Virus genome (UHGV): UHGV-0342252
Reading direction: 5' to 3' (one strand)
DNA: 12,818 nt
Origin: a virus
Shown: in pieces, positions 5,304 to 10,478 of the stretch
Numbering within the stretch: the first letter of the stretch is position 1
Layout of the letters: each line of letters opens with the position of its first letter
Notes under the pieces: model-generated
The model's database searches: none
The model's input: only the letters and a program-made list of their open reading frames with translations
What the model was told of the DNA's origin: nothing
Made by a program: the position numbers and the translations under genes

Positions 5304-5945
5304 ATGCGCATGAACAGAACAGAAACTATCGCCGCGCGTATCAAGCGATTACGGGAAGATAAAGGGCTTTCACAGAAGGCTCTGGCGGAGCTTTGCGGCT
5401 GGGCTTCACAATCTCGGATCGGCAACTATGAATCAGGAACCAGAAGCGTTAGTGTTGATGACGCAGAGGTAATAGCTAAAGCTTTGGGCGTCGCTCCGGC
5501 AGAACTGCTTTTTGGCGACAACTATCAGGGACAATACAAGCCAGGGGAAAAGTTTCCGTTGATTAGCTGGGTTAGCGCAGGTGCATGGAGTGAGGCCGTA
5601 GAGCCGTACAACCCTCAGGCAGTGGATGAGTGGTATGAATCAGATTGTCACGTTGTCGGTGACGCCTTCTGGCTCAGGGTTCAGGGCGACTCAATGACAG
5701 CTCCTACCGGCCTTAGCGTTCCTGAGGGTATGCTGGTTCTGTTCGACACTGGAAAGGAAGCCGTTAATGGAAGCCTGGTAGTTGCGAAGCTGACAGATGC
5801 TAATGAAGCCACGTTCAAGAAGCTAATCATTGATGGCGGTAACAAATACCTGAAAGGGCTTAACCCTGCCTATCCGTTGATCCCAATCGACGGCAACTGC
5901 AAGATAATCGGCGTAGCAGTGCAGATGATGATGAAATTCTCCTGA
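5304..5945 (+). CDS. cI: CI-type prophage repressor with LexA-like S24 autopeptidase domain (213 aa)
   Basis: N-terminal HTH; C-terminal domain with Ala-Gly cleavage site (SWVSAGAW), Ser (QGDSMTAP) and Lys (VVAKL) resembles the P22 C2 / lambda CI family. Alternative start at ATG 5310. Confidence 0.9.
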   Translation: MRMNRTETIAARIKRLREDKGLSQKALAELCGWASQSRIGNYESGTRSVSVDDAEVIAKALGVAPAELLFGDNYQGQYKPGEKFPLISWVSAGAWSEAVEPYNPQAVDEWYESDCHVVGDAFWLRVQGDSMTAPTGLSVPEGMLVLFDTGKEAVNGSLVVAKLTDANEATFKKLIIDGGNKYLKGLNPAYPLIPIDGNCKIIGVAVQMMMKFS

Positions 5946-5968: not shown

Positions 5969-5993
5969 AAACCCGCTTCGGCGGGTTTTTTGT
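5969..5993 (+). terminator. intrinsic terminator directly after cI
   Basis: ACCCGC-TTCG-GCGGGT hairpin (5971..5986) followed by a T-run. Confidence 0.7.
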
Positions 5994-6165: not shown

Positions 6166-6433
6166 AGCATTCAAAGCAGAAGGCTTTGGGGTGTGGTGAA
6201 GCCAGCTAGTCACTGGCAAGTGCTTACCTACTGTTGAGCGGTGAAGCGCTCCCAACGCTAGCAATAGCGTGGACGAGATGGGGAGCCGCGGGCGATAAGG
6301 CCGCCATAACGCGCACGTTGTCGCATGGAAAAATCGCTGGGGTGCCGGTTATACCCCTCCGAATGAGACTCAACAAGCTGGAGCTAGACTACCAGCCACC
6401 ACACCACCAAAGCTAACTGACAGGAGAATGACC

Positions 6434-6565
6434 ATGAATAACGAAGCGCTTAAAGAAATGATTGCGAAACTCCTTGAGGACGCACGCCGAATTCAAGAAG
6501 TGGAGCCAAACGCAGGGACACAATCACGTATTGATGAAGCGATGAAGTTGCTCAAAGGAGAATAA
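6434..6565 (+). CDS. small ORF (43 aa) immediately upstream of N
   Basis: SD AGGAG (6422..6426) 7 nt before the ATG; stop TAA lies between the SD and ATG of N. Product MNNEALKEMIAKLLEDARRIQEVEPNAGTQSRIDEAMKLLKGE, predicted helical. Below the ORF-track size cutoff. Confidence 0.45.
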   Translation: MNNEALKEMIAKLLEDARRIQEVEPNAGTQSRIDEAMKLLKGE

Positions 6566-6566
6566 A

Positions 6567-6893
6567 ATGGATGCACAAGCACGCCGCCGCGAACGTCGCG
6601 CAGAGAAACAGGCTCAATGGAAAGCAGCAAATCCCCTGTTGGTTGGGGTAAGCGCAAAACCAGTTAACCGCCCTATTCTCTCGCTGAATCACAAACCGAA
6701 ATCACGAGTAGAAAGCGCACTGAATCCGATAGACCTTACGGTGCTGGCTGAATACCACGAACAGATTGAAAGCAACCTGCAACGTATTGAGCGCAAGAAT
6801 CAGCGCACATGGTACAGCAAGCCACGCAGTGAAATGGGTGTGACTTGTGTTGGTCGCCAGAAAATGAAATTAGGCAGCAAGCCACTTATTTGA
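6567..6893 (+). CDS. N: antitermination protein N (108 aa)
   Basis: MDAQARRRERRAEKQAQWKAANPLLVGVSAKPVNRPILSLN... matches lambda N from memory over almost its whole length, including the Arg-rich boxB-binding N-terminus; cognate nutL and nutR boxB sites are present. Confidence 0.95.
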   Translation: MDAQARRRERRAEKQAQWKAANPLLVGVSAKPVNRPILSLNHKPKSRVESALNPIDLTVLAEYHEQIESNLQRIERKNQRTWYSKPRSEMGVTCVGRQKMKLGSKPLI

Positions 6894-6901
6894 GGTGAGA
6901 T

Positions 6902-7372
6902 ATGACAAAATCATGGAGCGTACCTTTTCCTGAATCAGAAACTGAACATGATGGAATGCCTGTTTTCTGGAGATTCCAGGCGACAGTTGAAGAAGATGGA
7001 ATCAAAATATTCGCACTTCAATATATAGCTTTTCATCAGACAGAGCATTATGCATGGTTGGTTCCTGCGCATTGGATTGTTAATTTTAAACCAGCACCAA
7101 ATCAGTGGTTACAGGAATGGAAACAAAAGAGAAATAGATATGCAATTAAGAAAGTAGCAAAAAATGCAGAAAGATCTTTTGCATTCCCAACGAAGAAACT
7201 TGCCATTGAAAGTTTATTGCGCCGGAAGAAATACCATTTAATGAGAATCAAACAAGATTTGGCTGTTGTATCAACTCTTGTTGATGGGATGAAGAATATT
7301 GATACATCAACACCAGATATTGAATATAACTTTGGACACAACCAAGAAACAGAAAATTGGGTATTTTATTAG
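6902..7372 (+). CDS. hypothetical protein (156 aa) encoded by an A+T-rich insert after N
   Basis: SD GAGGTGAG directly after the N stop, ATG 8 nt downstream. Coding sequence is visibly A+T-richer than N and cIII (judged by eye, not computed). No motif recognised. Confidence 0.65.
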   Translation: MTKSWSVPFPESETEHDGMPVFWRFQATVEEDGIKIFALQYIAFHQTEHYAWLVPAHWIVNFKPAPNQWLQEWKQKRNRYAIKKVAKNAERSFAFPTKKLAIESLLRRKKYHLMRIKQDLAVVSTLVDGMKNIDTSTPDIEYNFGHNQETENWVFY

Positions 7373-7476
7373 TACAAATAAGCACTGTGTATTCATTCCA
7401 ACGAGTGAATACACGGAGCAATGTCGCTCGTAACTAAACAGGAGCCGACTTGTTCTGATTATTGGAAATCTTCTTT

Positions 7477-7503
7477 GCCCTCCAGTGTGAGGGCAATTTT
7501 TTT
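7477..7503 (+). terminator. intrinsic terminator between the 156-aa gene and the coiled-coil gene (tL1-like position)
   Basis: GCCCTC-CAGTGT-GAGGGC hairpin (7477..7494) followed by AATTTTTTT (7495..7503). Confidence 0.65.
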
Positions 7504-7515
7504 GACGGAGGATAT

Positions 7516-8484
7516 ATGAGTGAAGTAACAGATTTAGTTGTTATTGAAAAAGCAAATGCAATGACTGTATTTCAGTCTGCCGACCAGATTGAAGAAATCC
7601 TTCAAAAGGTTGAACGTGAAGTTATGTCCTTTGTGCCTGATATCACAACGGCAAAGGGCAGAAAGGAGATCGCTTCTCTGGCGTATAAAGTTGCGCAGAC
7701 GAAAACATATCTCGATGGTCTTGGAAAAGACCTTGTTGCTGAACTGAAGGAAATTCCAAAGCTAATTGATGCCAACCGCAAGACAGTGCGTGATCGCCTT
7801 GATGAGCTGAAATCCAAGGCACGCCAGCCTCTTACTGATTATGAGGAAGAACAGGCGCGTATTAAAGCCGAAGAAGAAGCTAAGGCAGCAGCTGAAGCTC
7901 TCGCAAAGCAAATTGAGTCTGACCATGAAATAGCGATTTTGATGGATCGCGAATTTGACCGCCAAAGAGAAGAGGCAAGACTCAAAGCGGAGCAGGAAAA
8001 GCGAGAGCATGAAGAACGCTTAAAAAGAGAAGCTGAAGAGAAAGCCAGAGCAGAAGCCGAAGCAAAGGCAAAAGCCGAAATTGAAGCAGCAGCAAGGCGA
8101 GAGGCAGAAGCTAAGGCCGCAGCGGAACGTGCAGAGCGTGAACGCATTGAAGCCGAGCAACGAGCACAGCGCGAAGCAAAAGAGGCAGCAGAACGAGCTG
8201 AAAGAGAAAAGCAGGCAGCAATTGAAGCAGAACGCAGAAAAGCACAGGAGGAGGCTGAACGAATCCGTCGCGAGGCTGAAGCAAAAGAGCAAGCCAGAAT
8301 AGCAGAAGAAAAAAGAATCAAGGACGAAGAAGAGCGCAGAGCAAAGGATAAAGCTCACCGGAAAGAAGTAAATAACAAAATACTTGCTGACCTTATCAAG
8401 GTTGGCGCATCAGAAGATGTTGCTAAAAATATCATAACAGCCATCGTAAAAGGCGAAGTATTCGCAACAAAAATAACCTACTAA
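7516..8484 (+). CDS. coiled-coil protein with long Glu/Ala/Lys/Arg-rich helical domain (322 aa), function unknown
   Basis: Start set at ATG 7516 (SD GGAGGA, downstream of the terminator) rather than the ORF-track start 7462, which lies upstream of the terminator hairpin. About 110-aa N-terminal domain, about 175 aa of EAEAKAKAE / ERAERE-type repeats, short C-terminal domain. Confidence 0.7.
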   Translation: MSEVTDLVVIEKANAMTVFQSADQIEEILQKVEREVMSFVPDITTAKGRKEIASLAYKVAQTKTYLDGLGKDLVAELKEIPKLIDANRKTVRDRLDELKSKARQPLTDYEEEQARIKAEEEAKAAAEALAKQIESDHEIAILMDREFDRQREEARLKAEQEKREHEERLKREAEEKARAEAEAKAKAEIEAAARREAEAKAAAERAERERIEAEQRAQREAKEAAERAEREKQAAIEAERRKAQEEAERIRREAEAKEQARIAEEKRIKDEEERRAKDKAHRKEVNNKILADLIKVGASEDVAKNIITAIVKGEVFATKITY

Positions 8485-8507: not shown

Positions 8508-8654
8508 ATGATTTACGCAATCGCGGGAGGCGCTCGCATGGGTGCCTTCCAACTAAATGAATCTTTACTTGAACGAATCACCCGTAAATTACGTGACGGA
8601 TGGAAACGACTCATCGACGTACTTAATCAGCCAGGAGTTCCAAAAAATGGATAA
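8508..8654 (+). CDS. cIII: CIII, FtsH inhibitor (48 aa)
   Basis: ...ESLLERITRKLRDGWKRLIDVLNQPGVPKNG matches the lambda CIII core as recalled; SD AAGGA before the ATG; stop overlaps the kil start. Confidence 0.85.
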   Translation: MIYAIAGGARMGAFQLNESLLERITRKLRDGWKRLIDVLNQPGVPKNG

Positions 8655-8760
8655 AACACTTATGGCTATCCAGACTAAATTCGCTATCGCCACTTTTATT
8701 GGCGATGAAAAGATGTTTCGTGAGGCTGTCGAAGCCTACAGGAAATGGAGGTCAAAATGA
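8647..8760 (+). CDS. kil: Kil-like host cell-division inhibitor (37 aa)
   Basis: MDKTLMAIQTKFAIATFIGDEKMFREAV... resembles the lambda Kil N-terminus as I recall it; overlaps the cIII stop as in lambda. The ORF-track ORF 8557..8760 shares this frame, but the upstream part lacks a start signal. Confidence 0.65.
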   Translation: MDKTLMAIQTKFAIATFIGDEKMFREAVEAYRKWRSK

Positions 8761-8963
8761 TTACGGTAGAACTGGCGAAAACCCCAGAGTTAAGTCGATT
8801 AAAAAGAGAGTATCACATTGCTGAGGCTCGTTACTGGCGTAAAGCGGGAGATAAATCAAAGAAACAACTTTGTTTATGGCAAGCACAAAGAGAGCGCATG
8901 AATGAGCGCGAATTTCTTTCCTCCCCATCCGAATTACCATTCGGAGGTGAATTATGGATTTGA
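8757..8963 (+). CDS. hypothetical small protein (68 aa) at the position of lambda gam
   Basis: ATG 8757 overlaps the kil stop (ATGA), SD GGAGG upstream. No resemblance to lambda Gam noted. Confidence 0.5.
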   Translation: MITVELAKTPELSRLKREYHIAEARYWRKAGDKSKKQLCLWQAQRERMNEREFLSSPSELPFGGELWI

Positions 8964-9661
8964 ACAAATTCGATGAGCCATTCAGCCCTGAAGATATCGA
9001 ATGGCGAATACAGCAAAGCGGTAAAACACGCGATGGCAAGGTGTGGGCTATGGTGCTGGCTTATGTCACGAACCGGGCAATCATGAAGCGCCTGGACGAT
9101 GTTTGCGGCAAAGCAGGATGGCGCAATGAATACCGCGATATTCCCAACAACGGCGGAGTTGAATGCGGCATATCAATCAAGATTGATTCCGAATGGGTAA
9201 CCAAATGGGATGCTGCTGAAAACACGCAGGTAGAAGCCGTCAAAGGTGGTCGTTCCGGTGCAATGAAGCGCGCTGCCGTTCAGTGGGGAATCGGTCGGTA
9301 TCTGTATAACCTTGAGGAAGGTTTCGCACAAACATCTCTCGATAAAAAGCAGGGATGGCACAGGGCAAAACTCAAGGATGGAACAGGATTTTACTGGCTC
9401 CCTCCATCGCTGCCGGGATGGGCAATCCCAGCATCAGATAACAAACCATCACCAGAAAATACCAACCAGAAATCTCCATCGGTTGACTGCGAACAAATCC
9501 TGAAAGACTTCAGCGATTATGCATCAACAGAAACTGACAAGAAAAAACTCATCGAGCGTTATCAGCGTGACTGGCAATTAATGGCTGGCAACGAGGAGGC
9601 GCAGGCTAAATGCGTTCAGGTAATGAACATCAGAGTTAACGAACTAAAACAGGCGGCATAA
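8954..9661 (+). CDS. single-strand annealing protein, Rad52/Rad22-type core (235 aa)
   Basis: Strong SD GGAGGTGA; motif GAMKRAAVQWGIGRYLYN resembles the Rad52-family annealing signature; sits where bet/erf lie in lambdoid phages. Pro/Ser/Asn-rich linker precedes a separate C-terminal domain. Confidence 0.7.
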   Translation: MDLNKFDEPFSPEDIEWRIQQSGKTRDGKVWAMVLAYVTNRAIMKRLDDVCGKAGWRNEYRDIPNNGGVECGISIKIDSEWVTKWDAAENTQVEAVKGGRSGAMKRAAVQWGIGRYLYNLEEGFAQTSLDKKQGWHRAKLKDGTGFYWLPPSLPGWAIPASDNKPSPENTNQKSPSVDCEQILKDFSDYASTETDKKKLIERYQRDWQLMAGNEEAQAKCVQVMNIRVNELKQAA

Positions 9662-10168
9662 ATGGCAAGCAGAGGCGTAAATAAGGTGATTATCCTTGGT
9701 CGGGTAGGACAAGACCCGGAAGTTCGATACTCACCATCAGGAACAGCGTTCGCTAACCTGACAATAGCCACGTCAGAACAATGGCGAGATAAAAATACTG
9801 GCGAGCAAAAGGAATTGACTGAATGGCATCGTGTTGCTGTATCCGGGAAACTGGCTGAGGTCGTGGGGCAGTATGTGAAAAAAGGTGATCAGATTTATTT
9901 CGAGGGAATGCTGAGAACCAGAAAGTGGAAAGACCAGTCAGGACAAGACCGTTACACAACCGAGGTTCATGTCGGAATTAATGGCGTGATGCAAATGCTT
10001 GGCGGCATTGGCGACAGCAAACAACAAGCAGCCAGCAGGCAATCACAGAAGCCACAGCAGCAATCATCACCAGCACAACACAACGAACCTCCGATGGATT
10101 TTGACGACGATATACCCTTTGCACCAGTAACTCTCCCCTTCCCTCGTCACGCTATTCACGCAATTTAA
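9662..10168 (+). CDS. ssb: single-stranded DNA-binding protein SSB (168 aa) with extended C-terminus
   Basis: OB-fold region parallels E. coli SSB ([16 protein letters not shown]...[15 protein letters not shown]...[17 protein letters not shown]), Gln/Pro-rich linker, acidic tail [10 protein letters not shown]; ORF continues 15 codons beyond that tail. Confidence 0.9.
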
Positions 10169-10244: not shown

Positions 10245-10478
10245 GTGCTGGAAAGTATCAAGAATAATCTCGGCGCGTTTCTTGCTCTGCCACCAGAAAC
10301 AAAAGCAGAACGGAAGTACCGACGCGATATACAACTCGCAGAAAAACAGGAAAAAGACCGAATAAACGAAACATCAATCCGACCATTACGCAAAGCCACA
10401 TATACCCACTTCCCTGAATATATCGACCCGCGCCTGCGTAATTACCGCTCACGCTATGGCGCTATCAGTAATGACTGA
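10245..10478 (+). CDS. hypothetical protein (77 aa from GTG), possibly the 3' part of a gene interrupted by an amber codon
   Basis: A strong SD (AGGAG, 10171..10175) and ATG at 10182 open a frame that hits TAG at 10242..10244; the same frame continues from GTG 10245 with no SD of its own. Confidence 0.4.

Follow-up and report, generated by a model that had tools for sequence, protein, structure and literature searches.

A 322-residue phage early protein of the phi80 Agt/Mog family, with a predicted ER/K helix, encoded at the head of recombination modules

The 322-amino acid protein described here is encoded in a 12,818-nt stretch of the virus genome UHGV-0342252, which we call the window. Profile and alignment place it in a very large family of early proteins of phages, which has no Pfam entry and of which Agt/Mog of phi80 is the only named member. 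The family itself is known but poorly understood, and the 322-aa protein adds a member to it. In our best reading, which we hold with moderate confidence, it is a family member heading the recombination (Rec) modules and acts in the recombination and anti-RecBCD module as an accessory of the spacer or tether type.

The gene and its surroundings

The open reading frame begins with the ATG at 7516 on the + strand and extends to 8484, which includes the stop codon. In the list of open reading frames, the gene had been given a TTG start at 7462, whereas all homologues begin with MSEVTDL in the alignments. The GGAGG ahead of the ATG and the starts of the homologues both support the coordinates 7516-8484 that an earlier note on this DNA had proposed. 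The same note had placed the gene between a terminator and cIII, and both flanks were confirmed. The gene order in the window is N, a 156-aa gene, the 322-aa gene, cIII, kil, a Rad52-like single-strand annealing protein (SAP), SSB and Abc2. The features are as follows.

7475..7503, + strand: intrinsic-terminator-like hairpin (7475-7496) with a T7 tract; 8-bp stem with 5 GC pairs, 6-nt loop
7507..7511, + strand: Shine-Dalgarno GGAGG with a 4-nt spacing to the ATG, as read from the DNA itself
7516..8484, + strand: coding sequence of the 322-aa protein of the phi80 Agt/Mog, Sf6 gp33, phrog_1376 family, by profile and alignments
7516..7860, + strand: N-terminal conserved domain, aa 1-115, from alignments and the AlphaFold2 (AF2) model
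7846..8355, + strand: central charged helix of the ER/K single-alpha-helix type, aa 111-280, from composition, charge pairing and AF2
8356..8481, + strand: small C-terminal domain, aa 281-322, from alignments and a family-wide motif
8508..8654, + strand: cIII, the downstream neighbour, invariable in the clade of the 322-aa gene
8650..8760, + strand: kil, with a Pfam Lambda_Kil match on aa 32-62 of the open reading frame 8557-8760
8954..9661, + strand: Rad52-like single-strand annealing protein, core of the recombination module (PF04098, E = 5e-26; phrog_1097)
9662..10168, + strand: SSB, from its translation and from cluster membership in the sampled loci
10245..10478, + strand: Abc2-type anti-RecBCD protein (PF11043, E = 5.1e-25; phmmer against Abc2 of HK544 and APC_JM3.2)

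Downstream of N, the hairpin at 7475-7496 is the first terminator-like site; it is part of a conserved block that travels with the 322-aa gene.

The upstream neighbour varies

The earlier note had suggested that the gene forms one accessory module with the A+T-rich 156-aa gene upstream. This was analysed in 80 IMG/VR loci with an at least 98% identical N-domain, here called E. coli-type loci. The 156-aa gene was the neighbour in 13 of them; counting it, the genes in the upstream slot form at least 8 unrelated clusters. In annotated phages, the slot holds Ral in HK544 and a DUF2528 protein in APC_JM3.2. The DNA shared among these phages begins near 7382-7416, some 100-135 nt ahead of the ATG, so that the hairpin is inside the shared block and the 156-aa gene outside. 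Since at least seven other unrelated genes also fill the slot, there is no two-gene module. The co-occurrence check thus found the 322-aa gene independent of its upstream neighbour in an understood context, an outcome that the note itself had named as speaking against its proposal. The constant partner of the gene is the downstream block of cIII-kil and the recombination module. On its other side, the gene borders the hypervariable N-cIII slot, which holds anti-restriction genes such as ral.

Architecture of the protein

Residues 111-290 consist to 78% of E, A, K and R, compared to 34-35% in the termini, and to 86% of E, K, R, D, Q and A. Alanine accounts for 44 of the 180 residues of this charged segment. 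Opposite charges at i,i+4 were found in 60 pairs, against 29.2 +/- 4.1 in shuffled sequences (z = 7.5), and pairs at i,i+8 were depleted (z = -5.0). In the best heptad register of the region from about 155 to 280, strong hydrophobic residues occupy just 12-25% of the a and d positions. The charged segment therefore carries the signature of an ER/K single alpha-helix (SAH) and not that of a canonical coiled coil.

SAH domains of the ER/K type are found, for example, in myosin VI and X and in caldesmon. The 322-aa protein shares with them the high content of E, K and R, the i,i+4 pairing, the lack of a hydrophobic heptad seam and a predicted uninterrupted helix. It differs from them by much more alanine, by a conserved hydrophobic patch and a low-confidence break that interrupt the helix, and in that its monomeric state is predicted only. 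Few ER/K single-alpha-helix spacers from bacteria or phages have a function open to testing.

The AlphaFold2 model shows a near-continuous helix (H46-157 and H168-295) at a mean pLDDT of 81, with a dip in confidence at 159-168. A conserved hydrophobic patch is formed by residues 129-148, EALAKQIESDHEIAILMDREFDR, and the pure ER/K stretch comprises about 130 aa (about 150-280). The N domain of about 115 aa starts with the conserved peptide MSEVTDLVVIE, which is modelled with low confidence, and is followed by short helices at 12-20 and 22-37. The motif PDxTTAKGRKxIASxAxKVAxSKTYLDGxGKDLV...RxPLTDWE then falls on the start of the long helix. When aa 1-120 were modelled alone, the pLDDT was 86.5. 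The C domain of about 40 aa (HRKEV...KITY) has an HRKEVNN motif, a helix-turn-helix and a terminal I-x-Y.

A charged single-helix spacer between two small domains had been proposed before, and composition, i,i+4 pairing and the modelled helix agree with it. The proposed domain sizes of about 110 and 35 aa had to be adjusted to about 115 and 40 aa, and within the segment of about 175 residues the pure ER/K part is shorter, as given above. According to the model, the protein is predicted to be a soluble "dumbbell" of about 35 kDa, in which the ER/K helix of about 130-170 residues would hold the end domains apart. If fully helical, the charged segment would span about 20-25 nm.

Three other candidates were rejected from the sequence. 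With a net charge of just -7 over 175 residues, the helix is not a DNA mimic. The gene is not a strict DNA tandem-repeat array, since TRF found two weak short arrays only. A membrane protein is excluded by the absence of a hydrophobic segment.

Relatives of the protein

The protein matched phrog_1376 over its full length (E = 1.7e-110) and shares 98-99% identity with proteins of E. coli prophages. When the N-domain was used for the search, 4998 representative clusters (50% identity) matched at E<=1e-3. Members occur in phages of Enterobacterales, Pseudomonas, Vibrio, Alcaligenes and Iodobacter, with conserved position and architecture. Of 5426 complete E. coli genomes, 492 (about 9%) carry the gene intact and at full length, copies in Stx1a phages included.

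The earlier note had recognised no counterpart in lambda. Phage lambda was indeed absent among the matches listed; a named relative does exist in agt of phi80. The phi80 (Lula) protein Agt/Mog, gp39 (YP_007947961), also has 322 aa and is homologous over the whole length. The identity is about 41% in the N-terminal half (tblastn: 40.7% over aa 1-155, E = 6e-16). Common to both proteins are the N-domain motif, the ESDHE.ALLM..FDR patch, the ER/K helix and the HR..N...I.Y C-domain. In both cases, the gene belongs to the pL operon and directly precedes recombination genes. The next genes differ, with gamL-recT-exo in phi80 and cIII-kil, Rad52-like SAP, SSB and Abc2 without gamL in the window.

A second group of relatives, all phrog_1376, comprises the gene 33 protein of Shigella phage Sf6 and its equivalents in HK544, HK633, mEp043, mEp213, mEp234, Sf101, IME10 and Stx1a phage. 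They are 97.5-100% identical over the aligned termini, likewise lie upstream of cIII and are annotated as hypothetical or TolA. Their upstream neighbours and the type of the downstream recombinase differ from those of the window, and some alleles have in-frame deletions in the helix, resulting in 245-309 aa.

Across 24 diverse members, the residues T45, G48, R49, K63, G70, K78 and E110 are invariant, and the C-terminal motif is kept in 116 of 142 family representatives. The family lengths range from 245 to 333 aa, with the central helix as the site of the in-frame length polymorphism. In 111 full-length representatives, the linker has 97-257 aa (IQR 159-198), with 75% E, K, R, D, Q and A and 1% P and G. 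Though its sequence is unconserved, the i,i+4 charge pairing exceeds z = 3 in 86% of them. These linker statistics suggest that the charged spacer is a selected physical trait.

Neither the complete protein nor its N- or C-domain had a significant match in Pfam, NCBIfam or PDB sequences, and fold searches with the N-domain returned generic long-helix matches only. For the C-domain, recurrent weak matches below significance pointed to RuvA_C, UBA or HhH-like small domains, among them several RuvA chains (E = 0.16-1.8); among 38 members, its sub-threshold Pfam matches were to RuvA_C (2/38), HHH_3 (3/38) and Glycos_trans_3N (6/38). The N-domain motif may resemble DUF1351. However, when the window protein and more than 60 relatives were scanned against Pfam, neither DUF1351 (PF07083) nor Sipho_Gp157 (PF05565), nor the DUF2483 or Mu-Gam-like families, was among the matches listed, one of these listings giving the 25 commonest families. 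Distant family members matched no curated family apart from weak hits to DUF5856 (E = 0.0018 and 0.057). No DUF1351 gene is annotated in Listeria A118 or Lactococcus bIL286. No paper on the 322-aa protein came up in literature searches on gene 33 of Sf6, on TolA-like genes of lambdoid phages, on Agt/Mog or on GamL.

The gene heads the recombination module

In 159 sampled loci, the 80 E. coli-type loci and 79 more distant ones, the gene heads the Rec module, whichever annealing-protein family follows. In the E. coli-type loci, cIII-kil is always next, followed by Erf (33), Rad52-like (30), Sak4 (7) or RecT (6). Abc2 is present in 66 of the 80, and gamL adjoins the family gene in none of them. 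A recognised annealing protein was found near the gene in 71 of the 79 distant loci, usually within about 400 nt downstream, and at least one Rec gene in 78. The gamL gene is present in 48 of the 79, where it starts in most cases 8 nt after the stop of the family gene. Within 6 kb, about 30 of the 79 lack any recognised anti-RecBCD gene. Annotated phages showed the following arrangements.

D3: orf53, then Erf, then exonuclease; no gamL
phi80 and Mulock: family gene, then GamL, Bet/RecT, Exo
Piluca: family gene, then Bet, then exonuclease; no gamL
PhiPLPE: recE, recT, then gp77, then rdgC; no gamL
Seahorse: ATPase, hypothetical gene, then family member
Midgardsormr38 and GF-2: family gene, then cIII, onward to the recombinase

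No GamL homologue was found in the window. Because the adjacency to gamL is confined to phi80, Mulock and the 48 distant loci, it does not define the family. Members at least 97.6% identical occur both with and without gamL, and those without it are located beside Erf, Rad52-like or RecT.

In the sections consulted, a recent survey on the Rec modules of lambdoid phages does not name the 322-aa gene as a component. This leaves a gap in the descriptions of Rec modules, as the gene adjoins the recombineering genes (Bet, RecT, Erf, Sak4 and Gam-like inhibitors). In Firmicutes phages, Mu-Gam-like, DUF1351, DUF2483 or Gp157 genes (Sipho_Gp157) occupy the same position just upstream of or beside the annealing-protein genes Erf, RecT or Sak4, and the authors who surveyed those phages inferred an analogous function for them (PMC8093625). 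The relation of our family to these genes is positional only.

Proposed function

The gene would be transcribed from pL in an N-dependent manner, as the terminator-like hairpin ahead of it would make N antitermination necessary. Each end domain may bind a partner, and the protein would act as a spacer or tether-type adaptor whose stiff helix sets the distance or the effective concentration of the partners. In this way, it might tune phage recombination and, through a presumed link to RecBCD, the anti-RecBCD action on host DNA-end processing. Such tuning is on record for phi80, where Agt is noted to neutralise the toxic effect of GamL, an inhibitor of RecBCD. The GenBank record describes agt as "anti-toxin for Gam; Mog (modifier of Gam)" and the next gene gamL as "toxic without Mog". 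This antitoxin activity is that of phi80 and comes from the record notes only.

The same allele occurs with four unrelated annealing-protein families and with GamL, Abc2 or neither, so that a host component or DNA is a likelier constant partner of the protein than any particular phage recombinase. The near-identical members with and without gamL and the distant loci without an anti-RecBCD gene indicate that the link to RecBCD is not general. We counted the anti-RecBCD gene in the Rec module of the window, Abc2, in favour of the spacer or tether-type reading. Counted against it were the missing gamL in the window, the position of cIII and kil between the gene and the recombinase in this clade, and the location of the gene beside the hypervariable N-cIII slot. 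If the protein modulates RecBCD inhibitors or recombination, this could explain the toxicity of transplanted modules and could improve recombineering.

As a tentative extension, the Agt-like family may be a general, unrecognised component of the Rec modules in phages of Proteobacteria. It would act as a "ruler" adaptor of about 25 nm that bridges a host machine (RecBCD, replisome/SSB, DNA ends) to the annealing site, and the helix length, kept near 160-200 residues in thousands of divergent lineages, would reflect tuning for function.

Alternatively, the protein could be an accessory for anti-defence or host takeover that has nothing to do with recombination, with the adjacency to Rec genes reflecting shared early timing only. 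Such a protein might inhibit, or serve as a decoy for, a host immune system that detects proteins of the Rec module, or its gene might be a moron of the variable N-cIII region. In favour of this, the gene adjoins the slot in which ral alternates with other variable genes, and the association of one allele with four annealing-protein families and different anti-RecBCD genes points to a host target. The antitoxin-like relief of toxicity could also reflect a blocked host response. However, unlike true morons, the gene has a position and architecture that are conserved across diverse phages, beside the Rec genes, and we regard this alternative as unlikely.

The notes in the phi80 record, together with the 8-nt spacing to gamL in most of the 48 distant loci, which is typical of translationally coupled partners, would fit an antitoxin dedicated to a RecBCD inhibitor of the GamL type. 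In such a toxin-antitoxin-like pair, Agt would bind and buffer GamL and the copies without gamL would be remnants. We consider this quite improbable: gamL is missing from the window and from the neighbourhood of the gene in all 80 E. coli-type loci, and nearly identical proteins are encoded beside Erf, Rad52-like or RecT without it. Because the gene is intact in the 492 E. coli genomes and in D3, Piluca and PhiPLPE, which have no gamL, the pattern of decaying remnants is not matched.

That the protein is part of the virion or otherwise structural, for instance a tail fibre or another fibrous component, is very improbable. The sequence is long, helical and fibrous-looking, and records read "putative tail-fiber protein" (PhiPLPE) and "fibrinogen binding protein" (Vibrio phages). 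In the annotated phages, however, the gene is always part of the leftward early operon, surrounded by genes for regulation and recombination, and never of a morphogenesis cluster, and the charge pattern favours a monomeric helix over a fibre-forming coiled coil.

The TolA-like cell-envelope protein that PGAP and several phage records suggest ("cell envelope biogenesis protein TolA", "colicin import membrane protein") can practically be dismissed, since TIGR02794 tolA_full scored 10.5 bits against a cut-off of 59.45 with a match confined to the charged region, an N-terminal anchor and the TolA C-terminal domain are lacking, the maximum Kyte-Doolittle 19-residue mean is 1.03 and lies in the C-domain, and no Pfam family matched at E<=0.1. 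The automatic annotation is explained by the long, Ala/Glu/Lys-rich helical composition that this cytoplasmic phage early protein shares with TolA domain II, a low-complexity artefact. The family, with about 5000 clusters at 50% identity, is systematically mislabelled as TolA, and its annotation needs correcting.

The 322-residue protein carries a long charged helix between two small domains

The window comes from a lambdoid prophage and spans its immunity and early region; to the left of cI, the minus strand carries cro, cII and the replication genes. The leftward early operon lies on the plus strand in the order N, a 156-residue gene, the 322-residue gene, cIII, kil, a 72-residue phrog_1723 gene and the genes for a Rad52-like protein, SSB and an Abc2-type protein.

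Main features of the region
5304-5945, plus strand, cI
6567-6893, plus strand, N (Pfam N36, E = 3e-25)
6902-7372, plus strand, 156-residue gene (phrog_1636)
7475-7496, terminator-like hairpin followed by T7, just upstream of the 322-residue gene
7516-8484, plus strand, 322-residue gene (phrog_1376)
8508-8654, plus strand, cIII
8954-9661, plus strand, Rad52-like annealing protein (PF04098, E = 5e-26)
9662-10168, plus strand, SSB
10245-10478, plus strand, Abc2-type anti-RecBCD gene (PF11043, E = 5e-25)

The position between a terminator and cIII, given in an earlier note, was confirmed. A GGAGG ribosome-binding site precedes the gene, whose start, the ATG at 7516, is shared by all homologues.

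E, A, K and R make up 78% of residues 111-290. Oppositely charged i,i+4 pairs occur 60 times, compared to 29 ± 4 in shuffled sequences (z = 7.5), and i,i+8 pairs are depleted. This is the charge pattern of an ER/K single alpha-helix. AlphaFold2 predicted a helix that runs almost without interruption through residues 46-295 (mean pLDDT 81), apart from a break of low confidence at 159-168. When the N-domain was modelled alone (pLDDT 86.5), two short helices packed against the first part of the long helix. The first 11 residues, which are conserved, and the last 11 were modelled less confidently, as coil (pLDDT below 50 at residues 1-12 and about 57-67 at the last residues). Composition, i,i+4 pairing and the model thus agree with the earlier proposal of a long ER/K-type helix between two small domains. 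That proposal had left a single alpha-helix and a coiled coil side by side; the charge pattern speaks for the former, whereas the scarcity of strong hydrophobes at the best heptad a/d positions (12-25% filled, about residues 155-280) speaks against a canonical form of the latter. Its estimate was roughly 175 residues of Glu/Ala/Lys/Arg repeats. A conserved hydrophobic patch at residues 129-148 breaks up the charged region, and pure ER/K sequence continues without a break for about 130 residues. At 0.15 nm per residue this makes about 20 nm, or about 25 nm when the helix is counted over residues 111-280.

The protein belongs to a large family with a conserved architecture

The protein matches phrog_1376, a family of unknown function, from end to end (E = 1.7e-110). 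Searches of Pfam, NCBIfam and the PDB with the whole protein and with each terminal domain gave no significant match. With the N-domain alone as query, 4998 representative clusters among 1.84 billion representatives were matched at E <= 1e-3 and 3518 at E <= 1e-10. The domain was at or near the N-terminus in 150 of the 150 matches listed (median protein length 328 residues), and a terminal [ILVFM]-x-[YFW] motif was kept in 116 of 142 sampled representatives. An alignment of 25 diverse members showed the three-part architecture throughout. In 111 full-length representatives the linker measures 97-257 residues (IQR 159-198), consists to 75% of E/K/R/D/Q/A with 1% Pro+Gly, and has i,i+4 pairing with z > 3 in 86%. 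The linker is conserved in kind, not in sequence.

The E. coli alleles range from 245 to 333 residues through in-frame indels that leave the ends intact; the protein database holds many 245-residue alleles in which an in-frame deletion has removed 77 residues of the helix. With window 7416-8484 as the query (the gene and about 100 nt of upstream leader), the full-length gene was found at a coverage of at least 80% in 492 of 5426 complete E. coli genomes, whereas 2256 had a partial match. The copies in many prophages are therefore diverged, mosaic or truncated. The gene occurs in 147 phage records, with hosts in Escherichia, Shigella, Klebsiella, Erwinia, Edwardsiella, Yersinia, Vibrio, Pseudomonas, Aeromonas, Alcaligenes and Iodobacter. 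In a plasmid collection it was found almost only on non-mobilisable records of 40-60 kb, which look like phage genomes. Among family members P0019-P0087 and Pseudomonas phage D3 orf53 (L005:3989-5053), two independent ones gave weak, sub-threshold N-domain matches to Pfam DUF5856 (PF19174; E = 0.0018 and 0.057), which may be a remote relative.

The gene is linked to recombination genes and not to its upstream neighbour

The 322-residue gene and the A+T-rich 156-residue gene had been suggested to form one accessory module. We analysed 80 IMG/VR loci with an N-domain at least 98% identical to that of the window. The upstream neighbours belong to at least eight unrelated clusters, with the 156-residue gene in 13 of the 80, whereas the downstream order cIII then kil is constant in all of them. 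Near-identical copies follow Ral in HK544, a DUF2528 protein in APC_JM3.2 and the 156-residue gene in vB_EcoP-683R2. DNA homology to phages with other upstream genes begins about 100-135 nt 5' of the ATG, so that the hairpin travels with the homology block and the 156-residue gene lies outside. A module of the two genes is not supported, and the 322-residue gene, found beside Rec modules (phage homologous-recombination gene clusters) with at least seven other upstream neighbours, occurs independently of the 156-residue gene.

The slot between N and the hairpin holds at least eight alternative cassettes, among them the 156-residue gene, Ral, the DUF2528 protein and a 207-residue protein ("Smchd1" in the APC_JM3.2 record), and is an apparent hotspot of accessory or anti-restriction genes. 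The 156-residue gene directly follows N, has 34-40% GC compared to about 48% nearby, and had no Pfam match; the function of phrog_1636 is unknown.

Gene order around family members
D3: orf53, Erf, exonuclease
Mulock, phi80: family member, GamL, Bet/RecT, Exo
Piluca: family member, Bet, exonuclease
PhiPLPE: recE, recT, gp77 (family member), rdgC
Seahorse: ATPase, hypothetical gene, family member
Midgardsormr38, GF-2: family member, cIII, small genes, recombinase

In the 80 E. coli-type loci, cIII-kil is followed by Erf (33), a Rad52-like protein (30), Sak4 with a 195-residue partner homologous to an APC_JM3.2 gene annotated DUF669 (7), or RecT (6); Abc2 is present in 66. In the Rec-module classification of PMC12315714, the type corresponding to the window is "anti-RecBCD + SSB + annealing protein, no nuclease". 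A distant set of 79 loci (58-76% identity to another family member) had at least one Rec gene in 78 and a recognised annealing protein nearby in 71, usually within about 400 nt downstream. gamL is present in 48 of the 79 and mostly starts 8 nt past the stop codon. In one lytic-type Vibrio phage, no recombinase was recognised near the family member, only a PIN-like nuclease upstream. Since the annealing proteins and GamL vary while the Rec context is constant, the family is tied to the Rec module as such, not to one annealing protein or RecBCD inhibitor. In Firmicutes phages the equivalent position is held by Mu-Gam-like, DUF1351, DUF2483 or Gp157 genes, which have been suggested to be functional analogues (PMC8093625). 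Among the matches listed in Pfam scans of the 322-residue protein and more than 60 relatives, no sequence link to these families was found.

Proposed role of the 322-residue protein

The only functional lead comes from phi80. Its agt gene was matched by tblastn (E = 6e-16); the product also has 322 residues and aligns in all three parts. It is annotated as "anti-toxin for Gam" with the note "Mog (modifier of Gam)", and gamL directly downstream as "gam-like host nuclease inhibitor; toxic without Mog". This functional note has been in GenBank since the phi80 genome annotation and reportedly traces to Rotman et al. 2012. PMC12315714 cites Rotman et al. 2012 just for the blocking of RecBCD by GamL, and no further published work on Agt/Mog was found in the literature searched.

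The gene belongs to a known but barely characterised family. The size of this family, the conserved single-alpha-helix spacer, the regular position at the front of Rec modules in Proteobacteria phages and the incorrect TolA label are apparently undescribed in the literature searched.

We lean towards the 322-residue protein being an accessory adaptor of the Rec module, with far less confidence in any specific partner. Since a terminator-like hairpin precedes the gene, its expression would need N antitermination. The protein would be bivalent, and the helix would set the distance or effective concentration of two bound partners. The adaptor could thereby tune how the phage recombination and anti-RecBCD functions act on host DNA-end processing, seen as the relief of GamL toxicity that the phi80 note suggests. 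The phage partners served by a single allele are unrelated, so one partner or more is probably DNA or encoded by the host. A further, less likely possibility is that the helix is a functional ruler joining a host machine to phage recombination. Conserved long-helix residues of the N-domain recur about every seven positions (R49, A56, K63, G70, K78, D85, R92, P105, E112), and many are charged, which points to a stripe for binding and not to a hydrophobic core. A helix-turn-helix pattern in the C-domain shows similarity to RuvA domain III, UBA and HhH-type motifs that recurs but is weak and not significant; this would fit a small protein- or DNA-binding module. It is speculation that the beta-prone conserved end peptides, DLVVIE at the N-terminus and ATKITY at the C-terminus, pair between molecules.

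An anti-defence or host-takeover role apart from recombination seems unlikely. The gene adjoins the variable N-cIII slot and its independence of phage partners is compatible with a host target, but the conserved synteny speaks against a moron. A GamL-specific antitoxin, as the phi80 annotation would have it, is more doubtful still, since near-identical proteins occur in many contexts without gamL: among members at least 97.6% identical, some have GamL and others stand without it beside Erf, Rad52-like or RecT genes. A structural protein is very improbable and fails its tests. The least credible is a TolA-like envelope protein: the PGAP label "cell envelope biogenesis protein TolA" reflects an artefact of composition (TIGR02794, 10.5 bits compared to a cut-off of 59.45), the TolA C-terminal domain is absent, and no hydrophobic segment was found in the 322-residue protein.

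Other features of the early region

The Abc2 homologue has just 77 residues and a GTG start and matches Pfam positions 23-97, whereas homologues in related prophages have 97-98 residues; either its N-terminus is different or truncated, or another start is used. The 72-residue phrog_1723 gene ("recombinase" label; 8745-8963, plus strand) lies directly 5' of the Rad52-like gene and is without a Pfam family. A small gene of about this size likewise separates the family member from the Rad52-like gene in distant loci (offset +358). The mechanically called kil frame (8557-8760, 67 residues) overlaps cIII in a different frame. Since the Pfam Kil match is limited to residues 32-62, the true start is probably near 8650 (MDKTLMAIQ...), and the overlap would then be an artefact of ORF calling. 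Just 5' of N, a 45-residue frame (6428-6565, plus strand) matches phrog_32391 (E = 4e-34, function unknown) and should be within the pL leader/nutL region. Just past cI, a perfect 8-bp GC-rich hairpin (5969-5988) scores as a terminator on both strands and is probably a bidirectional terminator that ends the immunity transcript.
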